Shown: positions 1 to 17,478 of the stretch, piece by piece
How the letters are laid out: each line of letters begins with the position of its first letter
Position numbering within the stretch: position 1 is the stretch's first letter
Source: a virus
Taxonomy: Duplodnaviria > Heunggongvirae > Uroviricota > Caudoviricetes
Virus record (IMG/VR): IMGVR_UViG_2690315815_000002
Strand: one strand, 5' to 3'
Length of the DNA: 23,513 nucleotides
Program-made: the position numbers and the translations under genes
Notes under the pieces: generated by a model
Database searches by the model: none
The model's input: only the letters and a program-made list of their open reading frames with translations
What the model was told of the DNA's origin: nothing

Positions 1-324
1 TCATCTGCCGGGGTGATAATCAGGCGCGTGGGTGTTGTAATTGGCACCAATCACATCAAGGTCATTACCGGCGGCACAGGCCAGCATCACCGCCCGTGCG
101 GCCTCATTCACACGCTGACGCCAGATAAGCTCACGATAAGCATTTTCCTCCAGCAGTTTGACGAGAGGCTCAGATTCCAGTGTCAGGGTACGGGCGACCG
201 CCTCCTGCTGGTCTTCCGGGTAAAGGGAAATCAGTGTCGCCTTGCGTTCGGCAAGAATGGTTTCAAAGTCCAGCTCCTCGACCACATCCGGTGCGGGTAG
301 CTGGTTCAGGTCGATAATCGGCAT
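1..324 (-). pseudogene. J: baseplate assembly protein J (gpJ), N-terminal part; frame broken near nt 30 so the ORF stops at 1-3 while another frame continues past the window edge
   Basis: ORF 1..324 begins MPIIDLNQLPAPDVVEELDFE, which I recognise as the P2 gpJ N-terminus; after GANYNT it hits a stop, whereas the adjacent frame reads on as TRLIITPADD without a stop. Confidence 0.8.
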
Positions 325-328
325 GGTT

Positions 329-675
329 TCAACTCACAGGGATGGTTAACGAAAGTGGCTGGCCGGTGTCGTTGTGCTGGCCGGTTAACGTGACCGTCAT
401 TCGCCCGTCAAAACTGCGCTCAGTGGTGACGGATGACAGGGTGACGCGGGGTTCCCATTTCAGCACCGCCATGTAACAGGCGACCTTAATCTGCAACTCA
501 AGCGCGGGGTCTGCGGCTGGTCAATCATTGACGCCAGCAACGAGCCGTAATCACGACGCATCACCCGTGAGCCGACCGGTGTGCGCAGGATATCGCCGAT
601 ACTCTGGCTGATATGCTCAAGGTCAGTGACAGTCAGGCCATCACTGCGATTCATTCCGAGATAACGCGCTGTCAT
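329..675 (-). pseudogene. W: baseplate assembly protein W (gpW), frameshifted near nt 505
   Basis: ORF 460..675 matches P2 gpW through ...MIDQPQTP then diverges (RLSCRLRS...*); the adjacent frame continues ALELQIKVACYMAVLKWEPRVTLS...LTIPVS to a stop at 329-331. Confidence 0.85.
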
Positions 676-1302
676 AAAGGACTCCCGGTTGTGCCGCCGC
701 TGTCGCCGGGGTGTTTATGGGTATGCAGTACCTTACCGTTTGATGAGAGTTCACCGCCGGTGTGTTCAATGTTGCCGCGCATCGTCCCGCCCTTCTGCAC
801 TTCCAGCGTGCCGGTGATCAGCTTGTTTGTGCAGACCACCTCCGGCGTGTCCAGAGTGATGCGGGTTGATGCTTTCACCATGACCACCGGCACCGTGGCA
901 GTAACAGAATCAGAAGCCGTCACGCTGGCCGTTTTAATTCCGCTTACCGTAAGCGCACTGGTTTCGGGTTCATACTCAATCACCGCCCCGTCAGGGAAAC
1001 GGATATGCAGGGCATCCGCCGACGCAGACGGCGCAGGGTTATCGCCGGAATAAATCCCCGGCAGAACGAACGCCGTGTCGAGTTCACCCCACGGCCAGAA
1101 TCAGCACCTGTTCCCCCACGGAAGGTGCCCACCATGTGCGCGAACCGGCGCGATGGGTCAGCCACTGAAGCCAGTCGGTGCACATGCCGCCGGTCTGCAC
1201 ACGGCAGCGACCGGCGTTAAGGTCGGTTTCAACGATAATGCCGGTACGAATCATGTTGCGCAGTGCGCGCGCGAGTTCCTGAATATTTGCGAGAGTGTCC
1301 AT
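672..1302 (-). pseudogene. V: baseplate spike/puncturing protein V (gpV), frameshifted near nt 1086-1090
   Basis: N-terminal part (MDTLANIQELARAL...VLILAVG) is in ORF 1084..1362; C-terminal part (GELDTAFVLPGIY...VIEYEPETS...GSPL) is in the frame of ORF 672..983; the two frames meet at a C-run at 1087-1090. Confidence 0.85.
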
Positions 1303-1621
1303 GCATGTGAGATTGCACAATATATAAAAAGTTATGCTATCTGGATTCATTTGTAGAACCACCAGACAACATTCAAGGAGAGCGTAATGTCAGCTATAAT
1401 GTGACTAATGTGTGGGAAGCTAATCGTTTTGTATCTTTTGGTCTTTGCAGTATTAGCATTTTTTAGCTTTGGTAAAAGTAACCTTATGAGGGCTTATTGC
1501 ACATTATTTCAAATTTGGATATTCAGACAAAAAATTAAAAAGACTGGACCGCGAGTGGCGCGACATTCAACTATTTAAAATACTTAACGGAATCAATGTA
1601 TCAGGCATCGAAGATGTGAGA

Positions 1622-1942
1622 ATGATACAGCAGGGGCTGATTGATGGAAAACTAAAAACATCGGATTTTTTCCTTACTCGCTTCTGGGGAGACATAACAG
1701 AACCGCCATGCATCACAAAAACAATGAGTGCAGTCCTGGCCGGAATTCTTTATATTATCTTCGCATGTTGCATACACAACGAGCAATCTGCCATAGTAGA
1801 GGATGCCATAGCCATACCATATAAAAATATGATGTACCATGTTTATAATGACAAGGTTCTTTTGTTCTCCGACAATAAAACAGATAAGTTCTATAAGCTT
1901 TTAGCATTGCCGATTGCAAGAGACTGCAGAACACTTTTGTAA
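1622..1942 (+). CDS. hypothetical protein in the V-S insert; start and integrity uncertain
   Basis: ORF 1616..1942 (108 aa) in the track; no clear RBS; the same frame upstream is open and protein-like, suggesting a disrupted longer gene. Confidence 0.25.
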   Translation: MIQQGLIDGKLKTSDFFLTRFWGDITEPPCITKTMSAVLAGILYIIFACCIHNEQSAIVEDAIAIPYKNMMYHVYNDKVLLFSDNKTDKFYKLLALPIARDCRTLL

Positions 1943-2003
1943 CAGACACACTTCCTGCAATCGCCTGCAATAAGCTCTTACAGCTAAACGAGGAGGACTC
2001 CGA

Positions 2004-2172
2004 ATGGTTAAGTCAGGAGATTAAAGATAATAACAGCCACAGAAAAACATTATTAATAATATCCCTAATCTATTTCATTTCAGGTCTATTTATATTCCTG
2101 TCATACACAAAATTCCTTTACGCCAATAAGAAGGTTTTAGAATACAAAGCATCAAATAAAAACCACTCATAA
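2004..2172 (+). pseudogene. small single-TM membrane protein (about 56 aa if repaired), frameshifted after codon 6
   Basis: Strong SD AGGAGGA at 1991-1997, ATG at 2004, then stop after MVKSGD; the +1 frame continues IKDNNSHRKTLLIISLIYFISGLFIFLSYTKFLYANKKVLEYKASNKNHS to a stop at 2170-2172. Confidence 0.4.
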
Positions 2173-2241
2173 ACCTCTAAACATTGCGACCAGCACGGCC
2201 GCTCAATGTTTAATTGCGCATCAGCCTCTGCCTGGATAAAA

Positions 2242-2693
2242 CTAACGCTCAAGGTGAGCCAGGATAATCTCTTCAATCATCTGCACATCCTCACCGGTAA
2301 AGCCGAGCAGAGGACGCGCCGGATAATCAGTTTTCTTACCGTCTTTCCGGGTTTCTTCCGACAGACCGAACTGATGCACACTGGCAATTTCGGCGACTTC
2401 CCGCCGTAAAACTCCATTGATGCCTGTTCCGGGCTGGCGCGGATATGCAAAAAACGACTGGTGATAAGTTTCGCAAACATTTTTCGCTTAACACGACCGG
2501 TCTTTTTTCTGGCGCTCTGCTGCTGGCGTGGCACGTAGGGTGTGCCGTCCGGGGCTTTCTGTGCCATCACCCGACGCTGCTGACTCTGACGCAGACGTTT
2601 CGCCAGTTCGGCGCTCAGTCGCCGACGCCCTGACGGTGACAGCGATTCAGTCAGTCCGGTCAGCCGGTCTTCAAAACGCTTAAACTCATTCAT
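2242..2693 (-). pseudogene. S: tail completion protein S (gpS), frameshifted near nt 2388-2390
   Basis: ORF 2277..2693 matches P2 gpS through ...MEFYGGKSPK then diverges; the adjacent frame reads IASVHQFGLSEETRKDGKKTDYPARPLLGFTGEDVQMIEEIILAHLER to a stop at 2242-2244; the frames meet at a TTT run. Confidence 0.85.
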
Positions 2694-3153
2694 CCCACTT
2701 GCTCACCAGTTCGCCATTGATATACAGCTCCATCGGGCGGGTAACCGGCTCCGGCGGCGGAGGTTCCGGGATATTCTTCACATGTAGCGCGCCTTCCACC
2801 TCACTGACCAGCGTGCGCTCGGTCAGCATCAGGCTGATGCTGATATCAAAGCTGCTGTCATTGTTGATGTCTGCATAAAACGTGAAGCCCTTTTTCTGGC
2901 CTTCGTCGGTGGTCATGATGTCTGGCTGATTTTCCCGCAGCCACGCCAGCACCGGCACAATGAGCAGGTCAAAATCACCGGTAAAGTCGGTCACAATCAC
3001 ATTGAGCGTGTAACGCTTTTCGAATGACATAGACGTCGCCAGTGTGGAGGCAATACTCCCGTTATCCACGAATATCCGCAGCATCTCGGGACTGGTTTTC
3101 AGCACCGTGACGGCGTCAGTCAGCGCCCTGCGCAGGCTGTCGGGTTTGAGCAT
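2686..3153 (-). CDS. R: tail completion protein R (gpR)
   Basis: 155-aa ORF recognisable as P2 gpR; start overlaps the S start region as in P2. Confidence 0.9.
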   Translation of the reverse strand: MLKPDSLRRALTDAVTVLKTSPEMLRIFVDNGSIASTLATSMSFEKRYTLNVIVTDFTGDFDLLIVPVLAWLRENQPDIMTTDEGQKKGFTFYADINNDSSFDISISLMLTERTLVSEVEGALHVKNIPEPPPPEPVTRPMELYINGELVSKWDE

Positions 3154-3406
3154 CGTTTTCGTCCTGACAGTGTTTAATCATTTTTACCTGGCTGGCACAG
3201 CGTGCCAGCGCGTTCTCAAGCTGCCGGATATCAGCACTTAAATCGCCGTTCGTCTGCGGGTCACTGCCCGGCATCGGGCAAAGGCTCACTTTCGGGCAGG
3301 CGTTGGCGACAATCACTGGCGTCGGTGCAGGCCGGACGCTGGTGCAACCGGCGCACAACATCAGGCAGGTCAGCGCCGTACCAGCGGCGAAAATCTTCGT
3401 TTTCAT
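3116..3406 (-). CDS. lysC: LysC, Rz1-like outer-membrane lipoprotein spanin
   Basis: Internal start MKTKIFAAGTALTCLMLCAGC (signal peptide plus lipobox Cys) inside ORF 3116..3523, overlapping the 3' end of lysB in another frame. Confidence 0.75.
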   Translation of the reverse strand: MKTKIFAAGTALTCLMLCAGCTSVRPAPTPVIVANACPKVSLCPMPGSDPQTNGDLSADIRQLENALARCASQVKMIKHCQDENDAQTRQPAQGAD

Positions 3407-3686
3407 TGAGTAACCTCGTGATGGTTTTCTCGCGCTGTGCTTCACGCTTCGCGGCGTTCTCCAGTTCCTGACGCAGTACCACCTGCGCCAGCTCGTTTTT
3501 GTCTGCTCTGGTGAGGGCAACATGAAGCTGATTTTTCAGCATGGTGATAGTCGTCTGCTGCCCGCTGGCGACGTTGTTCGCCCTGTCCAGCGAGGCGCGC
3601 AGGCTGGCATTTTTATGTTTCACCAGAAACAGCCCCGCCACCGCCAGCGATAACAACACAACCAGTACAATCATCAGCTTTGACAT
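3261..3686 (-). CDS. lysB: LysB, Rz-like inner-membrane spanin
   Basis: 141-aa ORF with N-terminal TM helix (MSKLMIVLVVLLSLAVAGLFLV) and coiled-coil-like remainder; P2 LysB position. Confidence 0.88.
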   Translation of the reverse strand: MSKLMIVLVVLLSLAVAGLFLVKHKNASLRASLDRANNVASGQQTTITMLKNQLHVALTRADKNELAQVVLRQELENAAKREAQREKTITRLLNENEDFRRWYGADLPDVVRRLHQRPACTDASDCRQRLPESEPLPDAGQ

Positions 3687-4099
3687 GGTTCCCGCCCCTC
3701 AAAACGCTGACGGCAGGCCGTACGTATCAGCCGGAAGAACACCGACGCCACGAGGTAAATCAGCGCAGTAAAAATCCACCCGGCAGCGACCAGCGAGATA
3801 AACGTCGCCACCATCACCACCAGAGCCGCCGCCCGTCTGCGCCACGGCACCGGCTGCAAAAACAGCGACGTGACAATCTTCACGGCCAGCGATTCCGGCG
3901 GCAGCTCCCGCCCGTAGCGTTCCAGCACATACTCCGTGGCATACACGCCGACACCACCGGCAACCACACAGATAACCGTCGCCAGAATCGCCCAGGTGGC
4001 GACAAAACTGACGGCCACGCTCTGCGGGTAAATCAGGGACAGTGCCAGCATCAGCGCCAGCGACACGTTCAGCATCAGTGAAAGGGATAATTTCTTCAT
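3674..4099 (-). CDS. lysA: LysA, lysis-timing membrane protein
   Basis: 141-aa multi-TM ORF at the P2 LysA position. Confidence 0.85.
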   Translation of the reverse strand: MKKLSLSLMLNVSLALMLALSLIYPQSVAVSFVATWAILATVICVVAGGVGVYATEYVLERYGRELPPESLAVKIVTSLFLQPVPWRRRAAALVVMVATFISLVAAGWIFTALIYLVASVFFRLIRTACRQRFEGREPCQS

Positions 4100-4113
4100 G
4101 GTGTTTACTCCGT

Positions 4114-4611
4114 TTAAGCCGGTACGCCGCCGGCGGTACGCCAGACGGTGACCAGTTTTTCCAGTGAATGCTCACGCTGACCGTAACCGGCACCCGGCAG
4201 GGACGCCCAGATATTGCGACAGCGTGAAATGGCGCGCTCAATGCGTCCCGCCCGGATGTCATCCAGTGCACCGCGTTCGCGGATCAACTGAATGGCGAGC
4301 CTGTCCTGTGACAACGGACTGAAATCCGGCAGGGCAAGCTGTTTGCGGTAGTGCGGCCAGAACAGGTAAAGCTGCTGATAGCGACCGGAGGCCGTGGATT
4401 TTTCACCGCGACGGTTAAACACCTTCGCCGGTCGGCCATGCGCGAACGGGTGGTCACTGTAGTCGGTGAAAATTTCCGGCTTTCCGTCCAGTCCGGTGAC
4501 TATCACGTCATAGCCCCGGTTTTTCGTCAGCGGATGATTCGCCGTCCCTTCGGACACGGCCAGCATGTCGAGAAAGGCGGCGATATTCTGATGCGTGTTA
4601 ATTACCGGCAT
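4114..4611 (-). CDS. K: endolysin (P2 gpK, lysozyme)
   Basis: 165-aa ORF recognisable as P2 gpK. Confidence 0.9.
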   Translation of the reverse strand: MPVINTHQNIAAFLDMLAVSEGTANHPLTKNRGYDVIVTGLDGKPEIFTDYSDHPFAHGRPAKVFNRRGEKSTASGRYQQLYLFWPHYRKQLALPDFSPLSQDRLAIQLIRERGALDDIRAGRIERAISRCRNIWASLPGAGYGQREHSLEKLVTVWRTAGGVPA

Positions 4612-4892
4612 TACGGTTTCCCCCTGCCCTTAAAGCGGCGCTGAATGGCAATCTCAATCACCTGATAACCGGCGATACCCAGCATGGAACCGATGCCGCA
4701 CACCGCAGGCAGTGACAGGTCAGGAAACTGCACCAGAACAACACCGGCAACCATCGAGACAAAACCGCCGAGCAACATGCGCCCGATAAACAGACGCGGG
4801 GTGATGGGTTCACCACCGGCAAGCACCTTGCCGACAACAATCAGCACCCCAATCATGAAAAGCGACAGGACGCTTTTTTCTTCTGCTGTCAT
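4611..4892 (-). CDS. Y: holin (P2 gpY)
   Basis: 93-aa ORF with TM segments; stop/start overlap with K. Confidence 0.9.
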   Translation of the reverse strand: MTAEEKSVLSLFMIGVLIVVGKVLAGGEPITPRLFIGRMLLGGFVSMVAGVVLVQFPDLSLPAVCGIGSMLGIAGYQVIEIAIQRRFKGRGKP

Positions 4893-4895
4893 GCG

Positions 4896-5099
4896 TTACT
4901 CCCACAGATTGACAGTTTCAGCCACGGGCGCGGTCTGAACGTCGGGCAGTTCGACGGCGGTGCCGTGTGGCAGCACCGCACCCAGTTCAGCCAGTCCCGG
5001 ATTTGCGGCGAGCACGGTCTCAACCACGCCCTCAGTGCGCCCGTAATACCGGACACAAATGGCGTCGAGCGTGTCACCCTGTAGCGCAAAGGTCTTCAT
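4896..5099 (-). CDS. X: tail protein X (gpX)
   Basis: Internal start MKTFALQGDTLDAICVRYYGRTEG in ORF 4896..5168 gives the 67-aa P2 gpX; start overlaps the L stop. Confidence 0.85.
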   Translation of the reverse strand: MKTFALQGDTLDAICVRYYGRTEGVVETVLAANPGLAELGAVLPHGTAVELPDVQTAPVAETVNLWE

Positions 5100-5608
5100 C
5101 AGATTTGACTCACGATGCAGCGCGGCTTGTCCTGGATACGCGCCACCGCCCAGCGCATATCCCGCCACAGTTCATCAATGGTGCTGTCAATGCTGTCGGC
5201 CTTCTTGTCGCCTTTCGCACTGGCATCCACGCCGCGATAACGCTCATAAAGCGACGCGGTCGCCATCGCACACACGGCGCGCTCGTAGTAAAAAACTTTG
5301 ATGCTTTCACCGTCGATGTCGTCCGCCGGAACGTCCGCCAGACGCGTAAAACCGGCGGCAATTTTCTGTTCGCGGTACTCGTACAGCTCCGCATTCGTCT
5401 CCGCCATGCCTGACTTGATGGCCTCACGCAGACGGGCGGGGGCGACGGTCTGCTCAAGGCGCATACGTTCCCGGACGCGCTTCGGGTCGATATCGGGAAA
5501 AAAGAACGTGTTTTTAATCACCGGCTCGTCGCCTGCCGGTTGCGGGATGACCACCGTACCCTCACCGGACACGGGAGCCTCCTTTCGCGGAATAATCAGC
5601 GTCATCAT
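5099..5608 (-). CDS. L: head completion/stabilisation protein L (gpL)
   Basis: Start at MMTLIIPRKEAP within ORF 5099..5668 gives 169 aa, the P2 gpL length. Confidence 0.88.
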   Translation of the reverse strand: MMTLIIPRKEAPVSGEGTVVIPQPAGDEPVIKNTFFFPDIDPKRVRERMRLEQTVAPARLREAIKSGMAETNAELYEYREQKIAAGFTRLADVPADDIDGESIKVFYYERAVCAMATASLYERYRGVDASAKGDKKADSIDSTIDELWRDMRWAVARIQDKPRCIVSQI

Positions 5609-5707
5609 GACTACCTCTGAAAAGTCGGGCGGTGGACGCCGGTGCAGTGTCAGGTGATTCACCCTCACTGACCGGCGTGCCGCCCTGGCGCGGGGCGCAT
5701 TCGGTTG

Positions 5708-6451
5708 TTAACTGGCTTTCTTTTTCGGGCGTCCACGTTTTGCCGGTGTCACGCTCCGGGTCTTACGCGGGGCGCGGGTGACCGCTTTGGGCTGCGGCTC
5801 CGGCTTCGGTTTCAGCTCCCGCTCCAGTCGTTCAATCTCTTTTTTGACGCCTGCCTGACAGTCGAGCTGTGTCGCACGTTGCAGGTGAGCCAGCGCACCG
5901 GCGGCATCACCAGCGTCACGCAGAAACAGACCGGTGATTTTGTGCAGCTTTGCGCGCACTTCATCAGGCATGTCAGCCGTGGCGGTCAGTTCAAGGGTCT
6001 CCGTCAGCAGGCGGATATCCACAGATTCACCGGCAGCGTGGGCACGCATGGCCGCGAGTGCGACCTCCTCGGTGAACATGTACGGCGGGGTGCGGCGGTG
6101 TTTACCCGGCATGGTCAGACCGTACTTCAGGGCATAACGGGCAATCTCCAGCGCACCGGCAATATCGCCGGTATCCAGACGCCACAGCATGACCGTCATC
6201 AGAATGTCATCCTGTGCACCTTTGCCCTGCTCCAGCACACCGTTCACCCACGGCAACCAGAACGGCAGCAGTTCGCGCTTTTTCGCGGCCTTAAGCTCTT
6301 TTGAATAAATCGCTTTCAGTGTGCGCTGGTCTGCGGCCAGCTTGACCAGCATCTGCTCATAGACAGTTGCATGTCGCAGCGGGGCGGCTTCCCGCTGCGC
6401 GGTCATCGCTGCCGAGACCCGCATCATGTGGCGCTGTGCGGGACTCGTCAT
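5708..6451 (-). CDS. M: terminase endonuclease (small) subunit M (gpM)
   Basis: 247-aa ORF recognisable as P2 gpM, basic C-terminal tail. Confidence 0.9.
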   Translation of the reverse strand: MTSPAQRHMMRVSAAMTAQREAAPLRHATVYEQMLVKLAADQRTLKAIYSKELKAAKKRELLPFWLPWVNGVLEQGKGAQDDILMTVMLWRLDTGDIAGALEIARYALKYGLTMPGKHRRTPPYMFTEEVALAAMRAHAAGESVDIRLLTETLELTATADMPDEVRAKLHKITGLFLRDAGDAAGALAHLQRATQLDCQAGVKKEIERLERELKPKPEPQPKAVTRAPRKTRSVTPAKRGRPKKKAS

Positions 6452-6454
6452 CGG

Positions 6455-7528
6455 TTACGCTCCCGGCTCTGCGGTCGCCTTAGCCGGTGTGGAGAAATCA
6501 CCGACCTTGATTTTTTCCACCAGACAACCGGCGGCGTAGTCTTCCACCACGTAATCAATGTTCATTGACTCGTAGTTCTCCACGCGGTCGAGTTTCGGGT
6601 TTTCCACAATCACGCGGCGATGGCTGTCATCCATGTAGTAGATAGACAGGTTTTCCAGCTTCGTGATGAGCATCGCATCCGCCGGGAAGTACGGGACGCG
6701 TACCGCTGGCAGGTTACCGATGCGTTTCTGGCTGATGATGACGTCAGCAGCCAGCATTTCGCTGTTATCCTGCTCCCTGTTGACGATGGGGAAATACTTG
6801 TCCGCCAGTAGCTGACGCCCCACAATCACCACAAGGTCAGGGTCTTCCTGATACCACGGCTCAATCAGGTTGTTGGTCGCATCCATCACCAGTGCATCGA
6901 GGCTGGCATAATCACCGCCCTTACCCACGCGGATGACCTCAGAGGTGGTGCTGCCTTCCTCGTCAGTGACCTTGCTCATCACGCGAGCCGGGGCTTCATT
7001 GCGGTATTTCTGCAGCCAGCCGACCGCCACATCCTGCAGCATCGGATTGCTGCTGCGGTCAGAGGTTTCGGCACGCTTCACGCCGTTAAAACCGGCCATG
7101 ATGAAATCAAGGGACTGGCGTTTGATAATGGCGTTACGGATACGGAGCTGGAAATCCTGATAACGCGCCCACAGGTCCAGCGTTTTGTAGCGGATATAAA
7201 AATCGAAGTTAATCTGGTCGCATTCGTACTTGTTTGACGCCAGCTTCGAGAAGTCCTTCGGCTGACGCTCGGTGCCACCGGCGGTGTCGGTGGTGCTGGC
7301 GATGGAGCCGGTGACACCAATACCAATTTTTTCCCCTTTCATTTCGCTGACCGGCACAATGTTGATGCGGGTCAGAAAGTCAGAGGACTCCTGCATGGTG
7401 TTCATCAGGGTCTGGGTGACCGACGGTTCAACAGTGAATTTTTTCGACACATCACCGGCATCAATGCCGTTCAGTTCGGCAACACGGGACAGGTAAGCAT
7501 TAAATTTAAAGCGGGTTTCCTGGCGCAT
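6455..7528 (-). CDS. N: major capsid protein N (gpN)
   Basis: 357-aa ORF recognisable as P2 gpN. Confidence 0.92.
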   Translation of the reverse strand: MRQETRFKFNAYLSRVAELNGIDAGDVSKKFTVEPSVTQTLMNTMQESSDFLTRINIVPVSEMKGEKIGIGVTGSIASTTDTAGGTERQPKDFSKLASNKYECDQINFDFYIRYKTLDLWARYQDFQLRIRNAIIKRQSLDFIMAGFNGVKRAETSDRSSNPMLQDVAVGWLQKYRNEAPARVMSKVTDEEGSTTSEVIRVGKGGDYASLDALVMDATNNLIEPWYQEDPDLVVIVGRQLLADKYFPIVNREQDNSEMLAADVIISQKRIGNLPAVRVPYFPADAMLITKLENLSIYYMDDSHRRVIVENPKLDRVENYESMNIDYVVEDYAAGCLVEKIKVGDFSTPAKATAEPGA

Positions 7529-7586
7529 AGTTTTTCCTGAAATTAAGGGTTAATCGTGAAGGTTTTCCCGGACTGACTGACGCCGG

Positions 7587-8441
7587 TCAGCAGTTCGTCA
7601 TCAGGCCGTCACCGCCACCACCGGTGGCCTTGCTGCGGCGCTGCTGGGTCAGACTTTCGGTGTGGTCGAGACTGTTTTTCAGGCGGGTGAATGCCTGGCT
7701 GGTTTCATCCGCCCTGTCAGTCACCGCCTGCTTAAGTGCGGAAAAGGCGGTTTCCATCTCAGCGAGGCGCTGCTCAGTGGCGCTCAGTTTTTCCTGCACA
7801 TGTTCAGCAACAGCGGTCACCGCTTCATGCACGTCATTCAGACGGGCGTCATCGCTGGCCTGTTTGCGGCCAAAAATGGATTTCACCTTTTCGGTCAGGG
7901 CGGTGAACACGGTTTCAGGCAGGTCTTCAAATTCCAGCTCAACGGGCGTTGCCACTGAAATCAGGTTTTCAGGGCTTAATTTGAAGCGGTTCAGAGGGTT
8001 GTGTTTTGCCGTGCGGCAGAATTCCAGGTATTCCGTGCCGAGGCTTGCCGGGTCATCGGTGACGGCCAGCCCCACCAGATAACATTTGCCGGTGTTGGCA
8101 AAGTTCGGCTGAATTTCCATTGAGGTGTAGACCTTCTGCGCGGCCTTGTTCATCGCGATAAGGTCATCGGTCGGGGTGATTTTCGCAAACAGCGCCCATT
8201 TGCCTTTCAGCGCCGAATCATCGTCAATCTTTTCGGCCTTCAGTTCGACCACATCGCCATAACGCTTAAAAATACCGTCAGGCAGGATGCCGCGCAGATG
8301 TTCCAGGTTAATGCGGCAACCATAGACTCGCGGGTCAAAGGTTTCGGCCATTTCCTGAATATCCTGCGCACTGATGACACGCCCGTCACAGGTGTCACCC
8401 TCAACGCCGATACGAAAGAATTTTGAGACTTTTTTTGCCAT
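7587..8441 (-). CDS. O: capsid scaffolding protein O (gpO); native upstream region replaced by an IS end
   Basis: Start at MAKKVSKFFRIGVEGDT within ORF 7587..8468 gives 284 aa, the P2 gpO length; start codon lies inside the IS target duplication. Confidence 0.88.
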   Translation of the reverse strand: MAKKVSKFFRIGVEGDTCDGRVISAQDIQEMAETFDPRVYGCRINLEHLRGILPDGIFKRYGDVVELKAEKIDDDSALKGKWALFAKITPTDDLIAMNKAAQKVYTSMEIQPNFANTGKCYLVGLAVTDDPASLGTEYLEFCRTAKHNPLNRFKLSPENLISVATPVELEFEDLPETVFTALTEKVKSIFGRKQASDDARLNDVHEAVTAVAEHVQEKLSATEQRLAEMETAFSALKQAVTDRADETSQAFTRLKNSLDHTESLTQQRRSKATGGGGDGLMTNC

Positions 8442-8442
8442 T
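8438..8442. repeat. target site duplication CCATT (left copy)
   Basis: CCATT immediately outside the left IS terminus; identical copy at 11024-11028. Confidence 0.75.
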
Positions 8443-8635
8443 TGCGTATTTTCATGAAAGGAGATCACTCAATAACTTCCATCGAGATCGGGTAATAACA
8501 TTTGAACAGATCGCTGAATAACATCGATGGAGATCACTTTTGACTCATTTTGTTATTCAGTGATCTCCATCAATGTTATTGGAACTTCACAGGTGTGTTG
8601 ATCTGTATCTTTTGCCATTCCGGTAAAGGATACCT

Positions 8636-10177
8636 ATGCCAACAGTTCCAATTTCTATGAGAAAACTTAAAGAAATTCTTAGGCTTAAATACGGTGTTGG
8701 ACTCAGCCATCGACAAATTGGTCGTAGTCTTGCAATCTCCCCTTCCGTTGTATCCAGATATGCTAATCGGGCGGCTCAACTTGGCATAAAGCAGTGGCCC
8801 TTACCTACAGGATGGGATGATACAAAACTAAAACATGCGTTCCTTCAGACCCAGGTTAAGATGAAGAAGCACTCTCTGCCTGACTGGGCTACAGTACACC
8901 GGGAACTGCGTAATAAATGCGTGACGCTGCAGCTACTCTGGGAAGAATACTGTGAGCGTAATCCAGGCGGTTTTTACAGCTATAACCATTACTGCCGGAT
9001 GTACCGTGAATGGCTCAAAACCACTTCACCATCAATGCGTCAGGTACATAAAGCTGGCGAAAAACTTTTCGTTGATTACTGTGGACCTACCGTTGGCGTT
9101 ACCGACCCTGAGACCGGAGAAATAAGAACTGCTCAGGTCATCGTAGCTGTTCTCGGGGCATCAAGTTACACATGGGCAGAGGCCACCTGGTCTCAGCAGC
9201 TTGAAGACTGGGTGATGAGTCATGTTCGCTGCTTCCAGTGGTTGGGTGGCGTTCCTGAACTTGTTGTTCCGGACAATCTGAAAAGCGCCACATCCAGGGC
9301 ATGTAAGTATGATCCTGACGTTAACCCTACCTACCAGCAGATGCTTGAGCATTATAATGTCGCAGTTTTGCCTGCGCGGCCACGTAAACCGAAAGATAAA
9401 GCCAAAGCTGAAGTTGGCGTTCAGGTTGTTGAACGCTGGATCATGGCCCGAATCAGGCATGAGATCTTCTACAGCCTTGCATCGCTTAATCAGCGCATTC
9501 GGGAGTTGCTGGAAAGACTGAATAACAAAATAATGCAGAAGTTGGGTTATTCACGTGCAGAACTCTTCATCCAGCTTGATAAACCCGCACTGAAGCCTCT
9601 TCCTGAAGCCAGTTACAGTTACACCCTGGTGAAGAAAGTCAGAGTTCATGCCGATTACCACGTGGAAATCGACAAACATTACTACTCGGTTCCATGTTCG
9701 CTGTTAGGCCAGCAACTGGAAGCATGGATCTCCGGAGAACTGGTAAGACTCTTCAATCAGGGGCAGGAGGTTGCTGTGCACCCGCGCAAGCGTACTTATG
9801 GCTACAGTACCCGCAACGAGCACATGCCTGAAGCTCATCGACAGCATGCCACCTGGACGCCAGAGCGTCTTCTGGAATGGGCGGGGCACATAGGCAGTGA
9901 AACTCATAGTTATGTGCTTCATATACTGAACTCTCGTCCACATCCGGAACAAAGCTATCGCTTCTGCCTTGGACTCCTGAACCTTCATAAAAAATACAGT
10001 AAAGCCAGACTTAATGCAGCATGTGCAAGAGCTCTGAAAACAAAGGTATGGCGTCTGTCAGGTATTAAATCGATCCTGGAAAAAGGTCTGGATAAACAAC
10101 CTGTTCAGGATCCAAAACCAGATCTGTTATCCACGATGGAACACGAAAACGTACGCGGCAGTGAGTATTACCACTGA
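8636..10177 (+). CDS. istA: IS21-family transposase IstA
   Basis: 513-aa ORF with the appearance of an IS21-family IstA (N-terminal HTH-like region then catalytic core); paired with an IstB-type ATPase. Confidence 0.85.
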   Translation: MPTVPISMRKLKEILRLKYGVGLSHRQIGRSLAISPSVVSRYANRAAQLGIKQWPLPTGWDDTKLKHAFLQTQVKMKKHSLPDWATVHRELRNKCVTLQLLWEEYCERNPGGFYSYNHYCRMYREWLKTTSPSMRQVHKAGEKLFVDYCGPTVGVTDPETGEIRTAQVIVAVLGASSYTWAEATWSQQLEDWVMSHVRCFQWLGGVPELVVPDNLKSATSRACKYDPDVNPTYQQMLEHYNVAVLPARPRKPKDKAKAEVGVQVVERWIMARIRHEIFYSLASLNQRIRELLERLNNKIMQKLGYSRAELFIQLDKPALKPLPEASYSYTLVKKVRVHADYHVEIDKHYYSVPCSLLGQQLEAWISGELVRLFNQGQEVAVHPRKRTYGYSTRNEHMPEAHRQHATWTPERLLEWAGHIGSETHSYVLHILNSRPHPEQSYRFCLGLLNLHKKYSKARLNAACARALKTKVWRLSGIKSILEKGLDKQPVQDPKPDLLSTMEHENVRGSEYYH

Positions 10178-10188
10178 TACGGGATCCA

Positions 10189-10938
10189 ATGATGAATCAT
10201 CTTTACGAACAACTGACCGCACTTAAACTCACCGGCTTCCGTGATGCGCTTAAAAAGCAACTTGCTCAACCGGGCACATACCAGGAGCTGGGCTTCGAAG
10301 AACGCCTGTCATTACTGACAGCAGAAGAACTAACCTGCCGTGAAAACAGGAAGGCAGAGCGTCTGATCAAACATGCACGGTTCAGACTTAATGCTGAGTT
10401 ATCAAAGCTGGATTATCGTAACAATAGAGGGCTGGACAGGGCCCTCATCCGTTCACTCAGTCAGGGAAACTGGTTAACCCTGAAACAAAATATTTTACTG
10501 ACCGGGGCCACCGGCAGCGGTAAAACGTTCCTGGCATGTGCACTTGGTCATAATGCCTGCCGACAGGGATACAAGGTCTACTATTATCGCCTTAAAGCGC
10601 TGATGGAACAGTGCTATCAGGGGCATGCTGATGGAAGATACAGCAAACTTTTGACCAGGCTGAATAATAGCGATCTGCTGCTTCTGGATGACTGGGGGCT
10701 GGAACCTCTCTCATCAGAACAGCGTAGCGACCTGCTGGAAATAGTGGATCTGATGTACCAACGAGGCTCAATCATCGTAGTGAGCCAGTTGCCGGTGGAA
10801 AACTGGTACAAAATGATCGGAGACTCCACACATGCGGATGCCATCCTAGATCGACTGGTTCATGGCAGTATCAAGATCGAACTTAAAGGAGAATCAATGC
10901 GGAAAATACAATCTCCGTTGACCGAAGGAGATCAGTGA
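10189..10938 (+). CDS. istB: IS21-family ATP-binding helper protein IstB
   Basis: 249-aa ORF with Walker A (GATGSGKT) and Walker B (LLLLDDWG) motifs, as in IstB/DnaC-like AAA+ proteins. Confidence 0.88.
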   Translation: MMNHLYEQLTALKLTGFRDALKKQLAQPGTYQELGFEERLSLLTAEELTCRENRKAERLIKHARFRLNAELSKLDYRNNRGLDRALIRSLSQGNWLTLKQNILLTGATGSGKTFLACALGHNACRQGYKVYYYRLKALMEQCYQGHADGRYSKLLTRLNNSDLLLLDDWGLEPLSSEQRSDLLEIVDLMYQRGSIIVVSQLPVENWYKMIGDSTHADAILDRLVHGSIKIELKGESMRKIQSPLTEGDQ

Positions 10939-11023
10939 AGGTAATTTAAAAACGGTTCTGTGAAAGTGACACGAACCGATCTCCATCGATGTTACTCACC
11001 GATCTCCTTCACGGTAATACGCA

Positions 11024-11028
11024 CCATT
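11024..11028. repeat. target site duplication CCATT (right copy)
   Basis: CCATT immediately outside the right IS terminus. Confidence 0.75.
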
Positions 11029-11200
11029 GTCAGGAGTCCTGAATAGTGATTAGAGGAGTCACATGTCGGCATCAGTTTCCCGACGATGCGCATCCTCCGC
11101 CATCAGTCCCGGATGGCTTATCACTGACACAACAGCACCTTAGCGAATCGCGGGGCGCGACTCAGTAGCCTTGCCGTGTATTCATCACGGCGAGGTATTC

Positions 11201-12973
11201 ATGACCATCACCACAGACACCACTCTTTTACACGACCCGCGTCGTCAGGCGGCGCTGCTGTACTGGCAGGGGTTTTCCGTGCCGCAGATTGCCGCCATGT
11301 TGCAGATGAAACGCCCGACGGTGCAGAGCTGGAAACAGCGCGACGGCTGGGACAGCGTTGCCCCCATCAGCCGTGTCGAAATGAGTCTGGAAGCGCGGCT
11401 GACCCAGCTCATTATCAAACCGCAGAAAACCGGCGGTGACTTCAAGGAAATTGACCTGCTCGGACGCCAGATTGAACGACTGGCACGGGTAAACCGCTAC
11501 AGCCAGACCGGCAACGAGGCAGACCTTAATCCGAACGTCGCTAACCGCAACAAAGGCGGGCGGCGCAAACCGAAAAAGAATTTTTTCAGTGACGAGGCTA
11601 TCGAAAAGCTGGAGCAGATTTTCTTTGAGCAGTCTTTCGACTATCAGTTGCACTGGTATCGCGCCGGGCTTGAGCACCGCATCCGCGATATCCTGAAATC
11701 CCGCCAGATTGGCGCGACATTTTATTTTTCCCGCGAGGCGCTGCTGCGCGCCCTGAAAACCGGTCATAACCAGATTTTTCTGTCGGCCAGTAAAACGCAG
11801 GCGTATGTGTTCCGTGAATACATCATCGCCTTTGCCCGTCTGGTTGACGTTGACCTGACCGGTGACCCGATTGTCCTGGGCAATAACGGCGCAAAACTGA
11901 TTTTTCTCGGCACCAACTCCAACACCGCACAGAGCCATAACGGTGACCTGTACGTCGACGAGATTTTCTGGATCCCAAATTTTCAGGTTCTGCGTAAGGT
12001 GGCATCAGGTATGGCCTCACAGAGTCACCTGCGCTCGACCTATTTCTCCACCCCGTCCACACTGGCGCACGACGCCTACCCGTTCTGGTCGGGTGAACTG
12101 TTCAACCGGGGACGCGCCAGCGCCGCCGAACGTGTGGAAATCGACGTCAGTCATAACGCCCTTGCCGGTGGGCTTCTCTGTGCGGACGGCCAGTGGCGGC
12201 AGATTGTCACCATTGAGGACGCCCTGAAAGGTGGCTGCACACTGTTCGACATTGAGCAGCTCAAACGCGAAAACAGCGCCGACGATTTTAAAAACCTGTT
12301 CATGTGTGAATTTGTTGACGACAAGGCATCGGTGTTCCCGTTCGAGGAGCTGCAACGCTGCATGGTCGACACGCTGGAAGAATGGGAAGACTATGCACCG
12401 TTTGCCGCCAATCCGTTCGGCTCCCGCCCGGTATGGATTGGTTACGACCCGTCACACCGTGGCGACAGCGCCGGATGCGTGGTGCTGGCACCGCCGGTGG
12501 TGGCCGGTGGCAAATTCAGGATACTTGAGCGTCACCAGTGGAAAGGCATGGACTTTGCCACCCAGGCTGAATCCATCCGCAAACTCACCGAAAAATATAA
12601 CGTCGAATACATCGGTATTGATGCCACCGGCCTCGGTGTCGGCGTGTTCCAGCTCGTGCGCTCGTTCTATCCCGCCGCGCGCGATATCCGCTACACACCG
12701 GAAATGAAAACCGCAATGGTGCTCAAGGCAAAAGACGTTATCCGCCGTGGCTGTCTGGAATATGACGTCAGCGCCACCGACATCACCAGCTCGTTTATGG
12801 CTATCCGCAAGACCATGACCAGCAGCGGACGCAGCGCCACCTATGAGGCCAGTCGCAGCGAGGAAGCCAGCCACGCCGACCTCGCCTGGGCGACCATGCA
12901 CGCCCTGTTAAATGAGCCACTCACCGCCGGTATCAGCACCCCGCTGACATCCACCATTCTGGAGTTTTACTGA
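11201..12973 (+). CDS. P: terminase ATPase (large) subunit P (gpP)
   Basis: Start at MTITTDTTLLHDPRRQAALLYWQGF within ORF 11171..12973; 590 aa, recognisable as P2 gpP. Confidence 0.92.
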   Translation: MTITTDTTLLHDPRRQAALLYWQGFSVPQIAAMLQMKRPTVQSWKQRDGWDSVAPISRVEMSLEARLTQLIIKPQKTGGDFKEIDLLGRQIERLARVNRYSQTGNEADLNPNVANRNKGGRRKPKKNFFSDEAIEKLEQIFFEQSFDYQLHWYRAGLEHRIRDILKSRQIGATFYFSREALLRALKTGHNQIFLSASKTQAYVFREYIIAFARLVDVDLTGDPIVLGNNGAKLIFLGTNSNTAQSHNGDLYVDEIFWIPNFQVLRKVASGMASQSHLRSTYFSTPSTLAHDAYPFWSGELFNRGRASAAERVEIDVSHNALAGGLLCADGQWRQIVTIEDALKGGCTLFDIEQLKRENSADDFKNLFMCEFVDDKASVFPFEELQRCMVDTLEEWEDYAPFAANPFGSRPVWIGYDPSHRGDSAGCVVLAPPVVAGGKFRILERHQWKGMDFATQAESIRKLTEKYNVEYIGIDATGLGVGVFQLVRSFYPAARDIRYTPEMKTAMVLKAKDVIRRGCLEYDVSATDITSSFMAIRKTMTSSGRSATYEASRSEEASHADLAWATMHALLNEPLTAGISTPLTSTILEFY

Positions 12974-14007
12974 TGAGCAAGAAAAAAGGGAAAACACCGC
13001 AACCTGCGGTGAAAACAATGACCGCCAGCGCCCCGAAAATGGAGGCATTCACCTTTGGTGAGCCGGTGCCGGTACTCGACCGCCGTGACATTCTGGATTA
13101 CGTCGAGTGCATCAGTAACGGCAGATGGTATGAGCCACCGGTCAGCTTTACCGGTCTGGCAAAAAGCCTGCGTGCTGCCGTACATCACAGCTCACCGATT
13201 TACGTCAAACGTAATATTCTGGCTTCAACGTTTATTCCGCACCCGTGGCTTTCCCAGCAGGATTTCAGCCGCTTTGTGCTGGATTTTCTGGTGTTCGGTA
13301 ATGCGTTTCTGGAAAAGCGTTACAGCACCACCGGTAAGGTTATCAGGCTGGAAACCTCACCGGCAAAATATACCCGCCGTGGCGTGGAGGAGGATGTTTA
13401 CTGGTGGGTGCCGTCCTTCAACGAGCCGACAGCCTTCGCGTCCGGCTCCGTGTTTCACCTGCTGGAGCCGGATATTAATCAGGAGCTGTACGGCCTGCCG
13501 GAATATCTCAGCGCCCTTAACTCTGCCTGGCTGAATGAGTCGGCCACGCTGTTCCGCCGCAAGTATTACGAAAATGGCGCACATGCTGGATACATCATGT
13601 ACGTCACCGATGCCGTGCAGGATCGCAACGATATCGAAATGCTTCGCGAAAACATGGTGAAGTCGAAAGGCCGCAATAACTTTAAAAATCTGTTTCTCTA
13701 TGCCCCACAGGGGAAAGCCGACGGCATTAAAATTATCCCCCTCAGTGAAGTGGCGACGAAGGACGATTTTTTTAATATCAAAAAAGCCAGCGCCGCTGAC
13801 CTGCTGGACGCGCACCGCATCCCCTTTCAGTTGATGGGTGGCAAGCCGGAGAACGTCGGGTCGCTGGGTGATATTGAGAAAGTGGCAAAGGTCTTTGTCC
13901 GCAATGAGCTTATCCCGTTACAGGACAGGATCCGCGAGATAAACGACTGGCTCGGTCAGGAGGTCATCCGCTTTAAAAACTACTCACTTGACACTGACAA
14001 CGGCTGA
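12973..14007 (+). CDS. Q: portal protein Q (gpQ)
   Basis: 344-aa ORF recognisable as P2 gpQ; ATG overlaps the P stop (TGATG). Confidence 0.92.
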   Translation: MSKKKGKTPQPAVKTMTASAPKMEAFTFGEPVPVLDRRDILDYVECISNGRWYEPPVSFTGLAKSLRAAVHHSSPIYVKRNILASTFIPHPWLSQQDFSRFVLDFLVFGNAFLEKRYSTTGKVIRLETSPAKYTRRGVEEDVYWWVPSFNEPTAFASGSVFHLLEPDINQELYGLPEYLSALNSAWLNESATLFRRKYYENGAHAGYIMYVTDAVQDRNDIEMLRENMVKSKGRNNFKNLFLYAPQGKADGIKIIPLSEVATKDDFFNIKKASAADLLDAHRIPFQLMGGKPENVGSLGDIEKVAKVFVRNELIPLQDRIREINDWLGQEVIRFKNYSLDTDNG

Positions 14008-14012
14008 ACATC

Positions 14013-14034
14013 GCCGCCTGCGGGCGGCTTTTTT
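14013..14034 (+). terminator. rho-independent terminator downstream of Q
   Basis: GCCGCC-TGCG-GGCGGC hairpin followed by TTTTTT. Confidence 0.7.
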
Positions 14035-14168
14035 ACATCCCGTCATCACGCCCTCACCACCGCACAAAACACCCCGCAGACACACCAACGCCCCAGCAGG
14101 CCGACTAAATGCCATCACGACGCGCTGAGACGCTGAAAAAATAAAATCAGCACCACCGCCAGCGCGCA

Positions 14169-14187
14169 GTGCTTTCCCCGCCTCGCC
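14169..14187 (-). other. cos site (19-nt cohesive end) of the P2-like phage
   Basis: GTGCTTTCCCCGCCTCGCC is the exact reverse complement of the P2 cohesive end GGCGAGGCGGGGAAAGCAC as I recall it; correct position just beyond Q. Confidence 0.8.
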
Positions 14188-14379
14188 CGCCCGCTTCATG
14201 GGGCGGTTTTAATGCAGTTGCATAGATACTATGGATCCGCACCAGTCCTGACCGCACGCAGCCTGAACGGACATCCCCGACGCATGCAAAAACATTCACT
14301 TGTTGCATGCAACGGCTTATTTAATGACAAATCAACTTAAATTTACAAAATCCACAGGTATGGATACTTTGCGAACATG

Positions 14380-14411
14380 ATAGGCTTACGAGAATTATCG
14401 AGCCTATTTTT
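14380..14411 (+). terminator. hairpin plus T-run immediately upstream of the RBS of the 313-aa gene
   Basis: ATAGGCT (14380-14386) pairs with AGCCTAT (14401-14407), 14-nt loop, then TTTTT; GGAG RBS at 14415-14418. Confidence 0.3.
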
Positions 14412-14425
14412 GACCGGAGCAATGT

Positions 14426-15367
14426 ATGCAAGGTAAAGTTGACGAACAGCAATCCAATGATATTGAAGCTGAGTTTGGATACTATCCAGTAGAAGTTAAC
14501 GTTGAAACTGATGATTTTTCTTTACTTACTTTACCCGGTCTAGCGGAAAAAACAAATCTTATAAACAATCACAGAAATGTTATTAACGGTTGGATATACC
14601 CAGGAAACCAAGAAGTATATAACCTCAATGGAGGCATATCCACAATGCCTTTTAGCCAACGAGTATTTGGCTTACCCAAAACACACTCACTAAAATTAAA
14701 AAATACATCTTCACTAGAAACTCTCAATTTTGCTGTGTGGTGTCTGTCTTTTTTCAAAGGGATAAGATTAACAACTACTGATGCCGGTTTTTTAGACGCA
14801 ACCCCAATAAAACCCAGCAAATTAACTGACTTTATTCTGGTCAAGTGCTCTGAAAAAGAGGTTATAGAATTAGCACTCAAATACATGTCTAGCGAGACAA
14901 AAACCAAACACGCACCAATAAATATAGCAGCAATAGTGCATGCACTATTTTTATCCCAAAACCCACAATACCTTAGCTTCGAAAAATTCCAGTATCTTTA
15001 TATGGCACTGGATAGTTGCTTTGCTTTAACATGGGCAGAAAAGAACAAGTGTACAGAAAAGACTCTAAATCACTCCAGGCGCTTGAAGTGGATCTGCAAA
15101 ACTTATGGAATACCACGACCATCATGGGTTACAGGCAAAAAAAACATTACAAACATCCGCAATGAAAACTTTCATGAAGCTATGTTTCATGGTCAACCAC
15201 TTGGCTTTACCACTATTAACAATTATCAATATGGAGATGACATATTACAACAAATGCAGGCTTTAATTTGCCGATTACTCGTTGCGATTCTTGGTGTTAA
15301 CGCCCCCGATTACATCACATCGAACGTGAACTCTCGTGAATATCATTCACTAACATTAAAAATATAA
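14426..15367 (+). CDS. hypothetical protein, 313 aa, AT-rich, with C-terminal R-x4-H motif (possible HEPN-like nuclease)
   Basis: Complete ORF with GGAG RBS 7 nt upstream; motif R245-NENF-H250 (IRNENFHEAMFHG) at nt 15158-15175; no resemblance to P2 core genes. Confidence 0.6.
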   Translation: MQGKVDEQQSNDIEAEFGYYPVEVNVETDDFSLLTLPGLAEKTNLINNHRNVINGWIYPGNQEVYNLNGGISTMPFSQRVFGLPKTHSLKLKNTSSLETLNFAVWCLSFFKGIRLTTTDAGFLDATPIKPSKLTDFILVKCSEKEVIELALKYMSSETKTKHAPINIAAIVHALFLSQNPQYLSFEKFQYLYMALDSCFALTWAEKNKCTEKTLNHSRRLKWICKTYGIPRPSWVTGKKNITNIRNENFHEAMFHGQPLGFTTINNYQYGDDILQQMQALICRLLVAILGVNAPDYITSNVNSREYHSLTLKI

Positions 15368-15382
15368 AACGACTAAAAATAC

Positions 15383-15408
15383 TCTCCAGTAACAATAAGT
15401 ACTGGAGA
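15383..15408. terminator. hairpin between the convergent 313-aa gene and the membrane-protein gene
   Basis: TCTCCAGTA / TACTGGAGA 9-bp stem with 8-nt loop; T-run follows on the minus strand. Confidence 0.4.
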
Positions 15409-15449
15409 TGTATTATCACTAAAACCAATAAAAAATCACAACTAATGCT

Positions 15450-16049
15450 TTACTTAGATAGTTTGTCTTTAATTATATTCAGAACACCAATTATTAATTC
15501 ACTGATTGGCGTGGCCAACTCAATAGTATTAGATGTCGACTTTGTTCTAAAGTCTTTATCTGTCGGGTGTTGAAATGCTGATTTAAGAAGAGTCAAAAGC
15601 AAAGTTAAACCCACACCAAGGATGAATGCAACAATAGCTATTAGAGAACTGGCCGATAACCAATCGGTGGATAAACCAGAAATAGATTTTCTAACTTTAT
15701 TAGTGTCTGAAGATGGTGTTATCCTCTCATCAGCCATCTTCGGATCCGAAGATAAAGCAGAACATTTTTCTGCTGAAACACAAGTTTGTGTATCTACTTT
15801 TTGTGTTATCGCTGCGGCAATACTGCTTTTCGCTTCCAGCAAGCCATTTCCAACAGCCAAAGCAAAGTTAAGCCCCTGCCATAGAAATGTACAAGCAAAA
15901 CAAAGCACAACGGCAGAGAGCACTAATCGCATACTTCTACGCTCTATACCATCCCGTCTATCTCGCCTTATAAGGATATCAGGATCTGAATCGCCCTTAG
16001 GAGTGGTTCCTTGCTCTGGGGACTGTCCAGATAAATCAATATCAGCCAT
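15450..16049 (-). CDS. hypothetical 2-TM membrane protein (199 aa from the first ATG; 160 aa if the internal ATG at 15932 is used)
   Basis: Two hydrophobic helices (LVLSAVVLCFACTFLWQGLNFALAV and LIAIVAFILGVGLTLLLTLL) separated by a Ser/Ala-rich linker; co-directional with and downstream of the peptidase gene. Confidence 0.5.
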   Translation of the reverse strand: MADIDLSGQSPEQGTTPKGDSDPDILIRRDRRDGIERRSMRLVLSAVVLCFACTFLWQGLNFALAVGNGLLEAKSSIAAAITQKVDTQTCVSAEKCSALSSDPKMADERITPSSDTNKVRKSISGLSTDWLSASSLIAIVAFILGVGLTLLLTLLKSAFQHPTDKDFRTKSTSNTIELATPISELIIGVLNIIKDKLSK

Positions 16050-16090
16050 AAAAAAATCACCCTTACATGTACAAACGTAAAGGTGATTTT
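16050..16090 (-). terminator. intrinsic terminator between peptidase and membrane-protein genes, directly abutting the downstream ATG
   Basis: On the minus strand: UCACCUUUAC / GUAAGGGUGA 10-bp stem (one G-U pair), 10-nt loop, then seven U, followed immediately by the ATG at 16049; the 3' arm contains the only SD-like sequence (AAGGGUG). Confidence 0.6.
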
Positions 16091-16115
16091 AAACAGGTTA
16101 AAAGTTAAAGGCTAA

Positions 16116-16601
16116 TTAATAAGCCATTCCTAAGCTCTTTAAGCGCCAATGCATAGCGGCTTCTGATACATTAAAGATGCTTGCTAATCTCAAAGTGCTA
16201 TCAATACCTTCTCTGGATACCAATTGACGTATAGCAGACTCAGGCATTAACAACTCAGCAGCAAACTTGTTTGCTTCAACCTCACGGTAATCACGAGCAC
16301 CTGTTGAATAATTCCCGACATTATCCCGATGGTACTCTCCGTCCTGGGTATGCCCCAGCACATGATGACCTAACTCGTGTGCAACAGTAAAACGTTGACG
16401 ATTAGAATGTTCACTAGAATCAAAATAAATCCTATGGACACCCTTTTTGATGACAGCCAGACCGCTTAACCCATCGTTGTTATAAGCCGATTCCTCAAGT
16501 GCTTCAACACGAGCACCCCACGCTTTAGCAAGCTTAAACGGATCGACAGGTAGTCGGCGATCCCAATAGCGGTCAAGCAGTTTTTTAGCTGCATAGCTCA
16601 T
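16116..16601 (-). CDS. ImmA/IrrE-family (M78) zinc metallopeptidase, 161 aa, with no adjacent HTH partner
   Basis: HEXXH motif HELGHHVLGH and the downstream EANKFAAELLMP signature typical of ImmA/IrrE peptidases; strong SD AGGAGG 5 nt upstream of the ATG. Confidence 0.8.
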   Translation of the reverse strand: MSYAAKKLLDRYWDRRLPVDPFKLAKAWGARVEALEESAYNNDGLSGLAVIKKGVHRIYFDSSEHSNRQRFTVAHELGHHVLGHTQDGEYHRDNVGNYSTGARDYREVEANKFAAELLMPESAIRQLVSREGIDSTLRLASIFNVSEAAMHWRLKSLGMAY

Positions 16602-16637
16602 GGTTGCCTCCTACGTTAAAAAAGTTAAGTATGCACA

Positions 16638-16666
16638 GCCATATCACAGTTGTTATTTTATGTCAA
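16638..16666 (-). promoter_or_regulatory. putative sigma70 promoter for the peptidase gene
   Basis: On the minus strand: perfect -35 TTGACA (16661-16666), 17-nt spacer, weak -10 TATGGC (16638-16643), about 35 nt upstream of the ATG. Confidence 0.35.
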
Positions 16667-17322
16667 GGCTGTTTTTCAGCCATTACTATAACACTAATCC
16701 ACGTTTTCCCATAACATTTTCGACATCATATATGCATTCCGTTCTGCATATAGAGCTTATCTTTGCTGATAACACGAGATGAATACGCGCAACCAGTCCA
16801 CGATTTATAAAAAACCTTATAAATCAGAATATTGAGTTAAAAAAACACTAACTACTTGCGCAGCGCGTTGTTAAACCTCAGCGACACTAAAAGAAAATTT
16901 CAGAGTCACCGAAGTTTCCACAGAAAACGCAACTTAATGATTTTATTGGAATTTATGTCGCTATTTTTAATTACTTGTTTAAATCCGCCATATTGAAACT
17001 GTGCATTTCTAGCCACTCACAACTTTAAAAAATTTACATTGCTTTCAAGACCTTATCATCCGTAGTCTCTGCTTTTTACTTTGAGCTATATCAAAAAAAG
17101 CTCAAACATCCTTGATGCAAAACCAGTATTACACAACATAAAATGCAACCAGAAACAACGACATACTATATGTTGTGTTGTTCAGGTCCTCTGTTCGGTG
17201 ATATGCCAGATCACTTTGCGTTTAAACAGAGCATTATTTCAGGGCAAGACTTCGCTCAATAGTCACTCCGCCTTAGAAGCGCATATATCGGCGGAAATTG
17301 CCCTCTGCTTACAGGAGGCGAT

Positions 17323-17436: not shown

Positions 17437-17448
17437 TATGCTTCAAAC

Positions 17449-17478
17449 AAAAAAACCACCTGCCAGGGTGGTTTTTTT
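17449..17478. terminator. bidirectional rho-independent terminator
   Basis: A-run (17449-17455), CCACC-TGCCAG-GGTGG hairpin, T-run (17472-17478). Confidence 0.65.

Follow-up and report, generated by a model that had tools for sequence, protein, structure and literature searches.

Two kinds of described system bear on the locus reported here. One is the late region of phage P2; the sequence record that matches our locus (AF063097) annotates J, W, V, orf30 (labelled 'nonessential'), S and R under the match; it also marks where V transcription starts, places an activator site ahead of that gene and shows a terminator in the gap from orf30 to S. The other is the end of a chromosome-sized contig. 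The Circlator paper describes HGAP contigs of circular genomes with 'low-quality contig ends' and with terminal overlaps that are nearly identical (PMC4699355), and another paper states that long-read error rates lead to frameshifts and premature stops, which pseudogenise genes (PMC12007338).

The stretch of DNA analysed here, designated as the window, is 23,513 nucleotides long and is filled by a P2-like (Peduovirus) prophage, the late genes of which run on the minus strand. From the window start, the gene order is J, W, V, orf30, S, R, lysC/lysB, lysA, K, Y, X, L, M, N and O, with orf30 on the plus strand. Beyond O lie an insertion sequence (IS), P and Q (plus strand), cargo genes, A, small early genes, cox, C and int. 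P2 matches window positions 1-2800 at 94.5% DNA identity with 100% of the stretch covered, and this identity, the order S-orf30-V-W-J and the opposite orientation of orf30 together place the region in the P2-like late gene module. A scan of the whole window against Rfam gave no match. Both window borders are stop codons, a false one in J at the start and that of int at the end, so the window was evidently cut at gene calls and the J frameshift set its left border. Downstream of Q are two proteins without a family match and a CapP-like ImmA/IrrE peptidase; the peptidase and other cargo genes are followed by an ORF-poor stretch of 1.1 kb.

The sequences closest to the window start are P2-like prophages of E. 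coli ST131. Up to about position 14,000, the window is identical base for base to the yegR-site type of these prophages (NZ_CP023849.1), except for a set of small indels and the IS. From 14,500 to 23,513 it shows only two differences in 9 kb from the cpxP-site type (e.g. NZ_OX637964.1). Judged by these alignments, the window is a mosaic in which one ST131 prophage type gives way to the other near position 14,000. The IS is a complete ISEc12 of the IS21 family (8443-11023, 2.58 kb). Its ends are inverted, the target site is duplicated over 5 bp (CCATT), and it matches other copies at 100% identity. It lies upstream of the capsid-scaffold gene, 1 bp away from the gpO start codon, and the head operon O-N-M-L has its promoter and ribosome-binding site displaced by the insertion. 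This insertion looks real and the prophage may be defective through it; a search of 5,426 complete E. coli genomes found its junction in none.

To call frames and indels, the window was aligned with the intact ST131 prophage NZ_CP023849.1 (L001), and the genes were translated one by one. Over window positions 1-8442 there were no substitutions and 11 indel events comprising 15 bases, all between positions 30 and 2389. The baseplate gene J, of which the window holds the 5' part (1..324, minus strand), is broken by a +G insertion at 30..32 (GG to GGG), where 14 other loci carry the reference allele. Residues 1-98 are encoded at 31-324 and residues 99-107 in the next frame at 3-29, so that a product of 302 residues in L001 is cut off at the false stop made by the frameshift, where the window ends. 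W, a baseplate gene of the gpW/gp25 family (329..675, minus strand; 115 residues when intact, as in L001), is broken by loss of a C at 505 (504..506, GCGCCGGGG to GCGCGGGG), with residues 1-57 at 505-675 and residues 57-115 at 332-508. The baseplate spike gene V (672..1302, minus strand) carries one frameshift, caused by a CG deletion at 1087..1090 (CACCGCCCA to CACCCCA), and one in-frame deletion, a loss of CGT at 1144..1146 (GAACGTCCGG to GAACCGG) that removes Arg54. Its residues 1-53 are thus read at 1144-1302, residues 55-73 at 1087-1143 and, after a change of frame, residues 74-211 at 675-1088. The non-coding PV promoter region has gained an A at 1326..1330 (AAAA to AAAAA), a site that lies between the Ogr/activator site and the start of V.

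The non-essential P2 moron orf30 (1387..2172, plus strand; 261 residues when intact, with no Pfam family match) is broken four times: by loss of a G right behind the start codon at 1388..1389 (ATGGTC to ATGTC), gain of an A at 1417..1418 (GGGAGC to GGGAAGC), gain of a G at 1491..1493 (GG to GGG) and loss of an A at 1895..1896 (AAA to AA). These four events sum to zero, and orf30 is spread over three frames, with residues 2-11 at 1389-1418, 12-35 at 1420-1491, 36-170 at 1493-1897 and 171-261 at 1897-2169. In the non-coding gap between orf30 and S, a GA deletion at 2185..2187 (CATTGAGCGA to CATTGCGA) falls in the region annotated as a terminator in P2. Finally, the tail completion gene S (2242..2693, minus strand) is broken by loss of a T at 2387..2389 (TTTT to TTT), with residues 1-102 at 2388-2693 and residues 103-150 at 2245-2388; this is the last difference ahead of about 9 kb of perfect identity. 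Most of the indels lie in or beside short runs or G+C-rich stretches. The deletions of CG, CGT and GA (n=3) are not simple homopolymer errors and count against an artefactual origin.

A first-pass annotation, made from the window alone, had reported that J, W, V, S and a small ORF, which is orf30, were frame-broken. Translation against L001 bears this out, with every break inside window positions 1-2390. Four of the five break points that it gave, near 30 (J), 505 (W), 1087-1090 (V) and 2388 (S), agree with the alignment. The fifth, at 2019-2022 in the small ORF, was wrong; that stretch is in frame, and the breaks in orf30 are at 1389, 1417/1418, 1491-1493 and 1895/1896. Its count of five sites was right as to the number of genes hit but fell short of the 11 indels, since V carries two, orf30 four, and two are non-coding. 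The gene calls uphold its statement that the genes from R through int are intact, although it missed the 2.58-kb IS directly upstream of O. It had also proposed comparison with the closest P2-like prophage, and in one of the closest, NZ_CP023849.1 of ST131, all five genes are intact.

The location of the indels became clear when the false products were looked up. An exact search for the false 138-residue gpS returned a single contig, FBYD01000004.1 (5,082,442 bp) of assembly GCA_900041715.1, with the record range running from base 1, and searches for the false 107-residue gpJ and 71-residue gpW also returned this contig. Window base 1 corresponds to contig base 287, and the window to bases 287-23,799 of this draft E. 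coli contig, which itself starts inside gene J. The 286 contig bases ahead of the window add one further deletion (contig base 143) and one substitution (contig base 3). Contig bases 1-2673 therefore differ from L001 by 12 indel events and one substitution, the sole substitution of the whole comparison, and the differences, spanning contig bases 3-2673, adjoin the physical end of the contig. By contrast with this zone, contig bases 2674-8728 (6,055 bases) and window positions 11024 to about 14000 (2,977 bases) show zero differences from L001. The clustering within the first 2.7 kb noted in the first-pass annotation is thus firmly established: of the 11,705 comparable bases, the first 2673 contain 13 of the 13 contig differences (p = 4.6e-9). 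The IS-extended gpO, a product unique to FBYD01000004.1, occurs at a single place in that contig, which implies that any overlap between the contig ends is shorter than about 8.7 kb. A look-up of the intact gpR (2,468 blocks) had no place in GCA_900041715.1 among the ten places listed. A literature search on GCA_900041715 and FBYD01 found no paper.

The spectrum of the changes is also unlike natural divergence. When the window outside this zone was compared, in the same genes, with the cpxP-site ST131 prophage L006, we counted 161 substitutions and one indel event; the ratio of 12 indels to one substitution in the contig-end zone differs from this 1:161 with a Fisher p of 1.4e-16. The indels strike essential genes, the non-essential orf30, the promoter region and the terminator region alike, with no bias for or against coding DNA and no signature of selection or of a gene-directed mechanism.

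Moreover, the changes are private to one assembly. Among the 20 loci compared, the window alleles at all 11 sites were seen only in the source contig, and the reference allele was present in 11-14 independent loci per site. Every relative compared had the same 11 or more gap openings against the window. Of 1,598 E. coli records that matched, the best had 99.5% identity over 2,807 bases, which corresponds to exactly 15 gap columns, so the best E. coli records have none of the indels. The false gpS and gpJ products were found in no contig other than FBYD01000004.1 in an index of 153 billion genes. A 36-mer across the V deletion (1087-1090) was absent from viral, genome and metagenome contig collections, a result that speaks for those collections only. 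For 10 of the 11 window indels, neither the relatives nor the indexes showed a recurrence. The remaining one, the W deletion that gives the false 71-residue gpW, recurs only in three short Logan contigs of other P2-like phages that are 2-4% diverged, each of which carries 2-6 further single-base indels in 1.1-1.5 kb. As these backgrounds are unrelated and noisy, its reappearance suggests an error-prone context (GCGCCGGGG) rather than inheritance from a common ancestor.

Taken together, the location next to the start of a contig, a spectrum made up almost wholly of indels, the abrupt boundary, the private alleles and the absence of a coding bias indicate that the frameshifts are almost certainly not mutations of the prophage but errors of a low-quality consensus where an uncircularised, chromosome-sized contig starts. 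Given the 5-Mb contig, the source assembly is most likely a long-read one, and its first ~2.7 kb was probably supported by few reads. On this account, the contig would begin at an arbitrary point inside J, and thin read support over about 2.7 kb would allow the consensus to keep typical long-read errors, insertions and deletions of 1-3 bases; gene callers would then split J, W, V, orf30 and S.

The first-pass annotation had left the choice between two causes undecided, and it is the second of these, base-calling errors near a contig end, that the evidence supports, by the contig-end site, the 12 indels versus one substitution, the abrupt stop at base 2673 and the alleles absent elsewhere. The first, that a cryptic prophage is losing its tail/baseplate module by decay, found no support; decay would bring substitutions, ignore the contig end and leave some lesions common to relatives. 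On the decay reading, these are true pseudogenes, accumulated by frameshifting in a prophage disabled, for example, by the ISEc12 upstream of O. In its favour, an IS with a proper 5-bp target duplication stands between the O-N-M-L head operon and the promoter and ribosome-binding site that serve it, so selection on the virion genes could be relaxed, and a prophage that may be defective anyway would be free to decay; replication slippage also acts at short runs, where most of the indels sit. However, twelve indels and one substitution would have accrued in 2.7 kb and none in the ~9 kb that follow, where the head and lysis genes are under no stronger selection; the natural rate in these genes is about 160 substitutions per indel, and the zone begins exactly at the contig end. 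Substitutions at the usual ratio, spread over the unselected genes, were not observed; apart from the IS, window positions 2390-8442 and 11024-14000 hold no lesion of any kind relative to L001. Nor are the lesions common to related isolates, since 11-14 independent loci are intact, and ten of the eleven do not recur in relatives or indexes, the W deletion being found only in diverged, indel-rich short contigs. We therefore regard decay as very unlikely.

A mixed consensus of two P2-like prophages in one genome, arising from a collapsed or mis-joined repeat, might also be thought to yield indels. Many ST131 genomes hold two P2-like prophages (L015 and L016 come from one genome), the window is itself a mosaic of the yegR-site and cpxP-site types, and repeats exceeding the read size are a common cause of contig ends. 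But from such a mixture one would expect substitutions in chimeric combination, not clean indels, and the mosaic junction, near 14,000, is far from the error zone. The two types differ by 18 substitutions in window positions 1-1302, and the window is of the L001 type at 18/18. With a single haplotype at every diagnostic substitution, we reject this possibility, which we consider extremely improbable. Programmed or tolerated ribosomal frameshifting, as in the P2 E/E' tail chaperone pair, can be dismissed outright. P2-like phages do have one programmed -1 frameshift, in E/E', and overlapping genes for a GpE-family protein and a tail assembly protein are annotated in L001, but the five genes considered here are single intact frames in every relative, so that there is no conserved frameshift site among the homologues. 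Moreover, the shifts vary in size and sign (+1, -1, -2, -3), two are non-coding, and orf30 would need four events. There is, finally, only the slightest chance that the isolate underwent a real, private burst of indels, without substitutions, over a tract of about 2.7 kb, conceivably through error-prone repair or gap filling after a break in J; the contig would then end there because the locus was heterogeneous in the sequenced culture.

If the frameshifts are consensus errors, as we hold, the locus serves mainly as a warning: in a draft contig, five genes of a tail/baseplate module that is apparently intact come to look like pseudogenes. At the false stop in J, a prophage caller would be led to cut the prophage short, and false truncated proteins enter the databases, where the 138-residue 'gpS' and the 107-residue 'gpJ' are already on record as unique products. 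The indel cluster is uninformative on prophage domestication, and the question of defectiveness belongs to the ISEc12 ahead of the head operon.

Compared with known systems, this prophage stands apart from other ST131 prophages in that its combination of the two types with an ISEc12 upstream of O is present in none of the 5,426 complete genomes searched. Its S-orf30-V-W-J region agrees with the P2 late region in gene order and strands, and the P2 annotations of the PV promoter and the terminator map onto the window; the difference is that P2 and every other relative have intact copies of the five genes, whereas the window carries 11 private indels. The genes are thus ordinary members of the P2 late module, and the feature, a known kind of assembly artefact, involves no new biology. 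It resembles the contig ends of the type described with Circlator (PMC4699355) in having a chromosome-sized contig, an arbitrary start inside a gene and false pseudogenes, as well as errors that are nearly all small indels confined to the first ~2.7 kb of a sequence with a perfect interior.

A complete copy of ISEc12, an insertion sequence of the IS21 family, occupies window 8443-11023, with istA at 8636-10177, istB at 10189-10938, ends that read TGCGTATT...AATACGCA and a flanking CCATT target duplication (8438-8442 and 11024-11028). The point of insertion lies 1 bp upstream of the minus-strand start codon of the capsid-scaffold protein gpO (8439-8441), and the element separates the O-N-M-L head operon from the late promoter and the ribosome-binding site that serve it. 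The insertion is a real candidate for the cause of prophage defectiveness. The element is 100% identical to ISEc12 copies found elsewhere in ST131 prophages, and its junction in the window was found in none of 5,426 complete E. coli genomes.

The prophage as a whole is a mosaic of two ST131 prophage types, with a junction at about 14,000-14,500. From position 1 to about 14,000 the window is identical to the yegR-site prophage of NZ_CP023849.1; from 14,500 to 23,513 it shows only 2 differences over 9 kb from the prophage of NZ_OX637964.1, the int gene of which adjoins cpxP. This exact combination of yegR-type and cpxP-type parts was found in no complete genome searched.

The one-base deletion in GCGCCGGGG (504-506) that breaks the baseplate gene W recurs in three short Logan contigs (from SRR22784730, SRR12299162 and SRR11485260), which derive from other P2-like phages diverged by 2-4%. 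In each the 71-aa product of the broken W is identical to that of the window, and each carries 2-6 further one-base indels. This looks like a position at which sequencing errors recur. The picture of an evenly noisy assembly is provided by another assembly of the same prophage (GCA_949811755.1, CATKVA010000001.1), in which frame breaks are found throughout the whole 20 kb and the portal, O, N, M, L, S, J, I, H and G genes are all split; in the window, by contrast, the errors are confined to the contig end. Both edges of the window are stop codons, a false J stop (1-3) and the int stop (23511-23513), and the window limits were therefore probably taken from the gene calls of a prophage predictor, the left border being where it is because a sequencing error in J created the false stop.

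Between the last of the cargo genes, which is ImmA/IrrE-like, and the replication gene A lies a 1.1-kb stretch (16602-17738) with ORFs of 81 aa at most and no Rfam match; the corresponding stretch is also without annotation in related complete genomes. The cargo genes themselves (14426-16601) lie downstream of the portal gene Q. The 313-aa and 199-aa products had no match in Pfam or PADLOC. The 161-aa product is an ImmA/IrrE metallopeptidase (Peptidase_M78), with no obvious HTH partner among the adjacent genes, and it resembles the CBASS regulator CapP (PADLOC, 1e-30).
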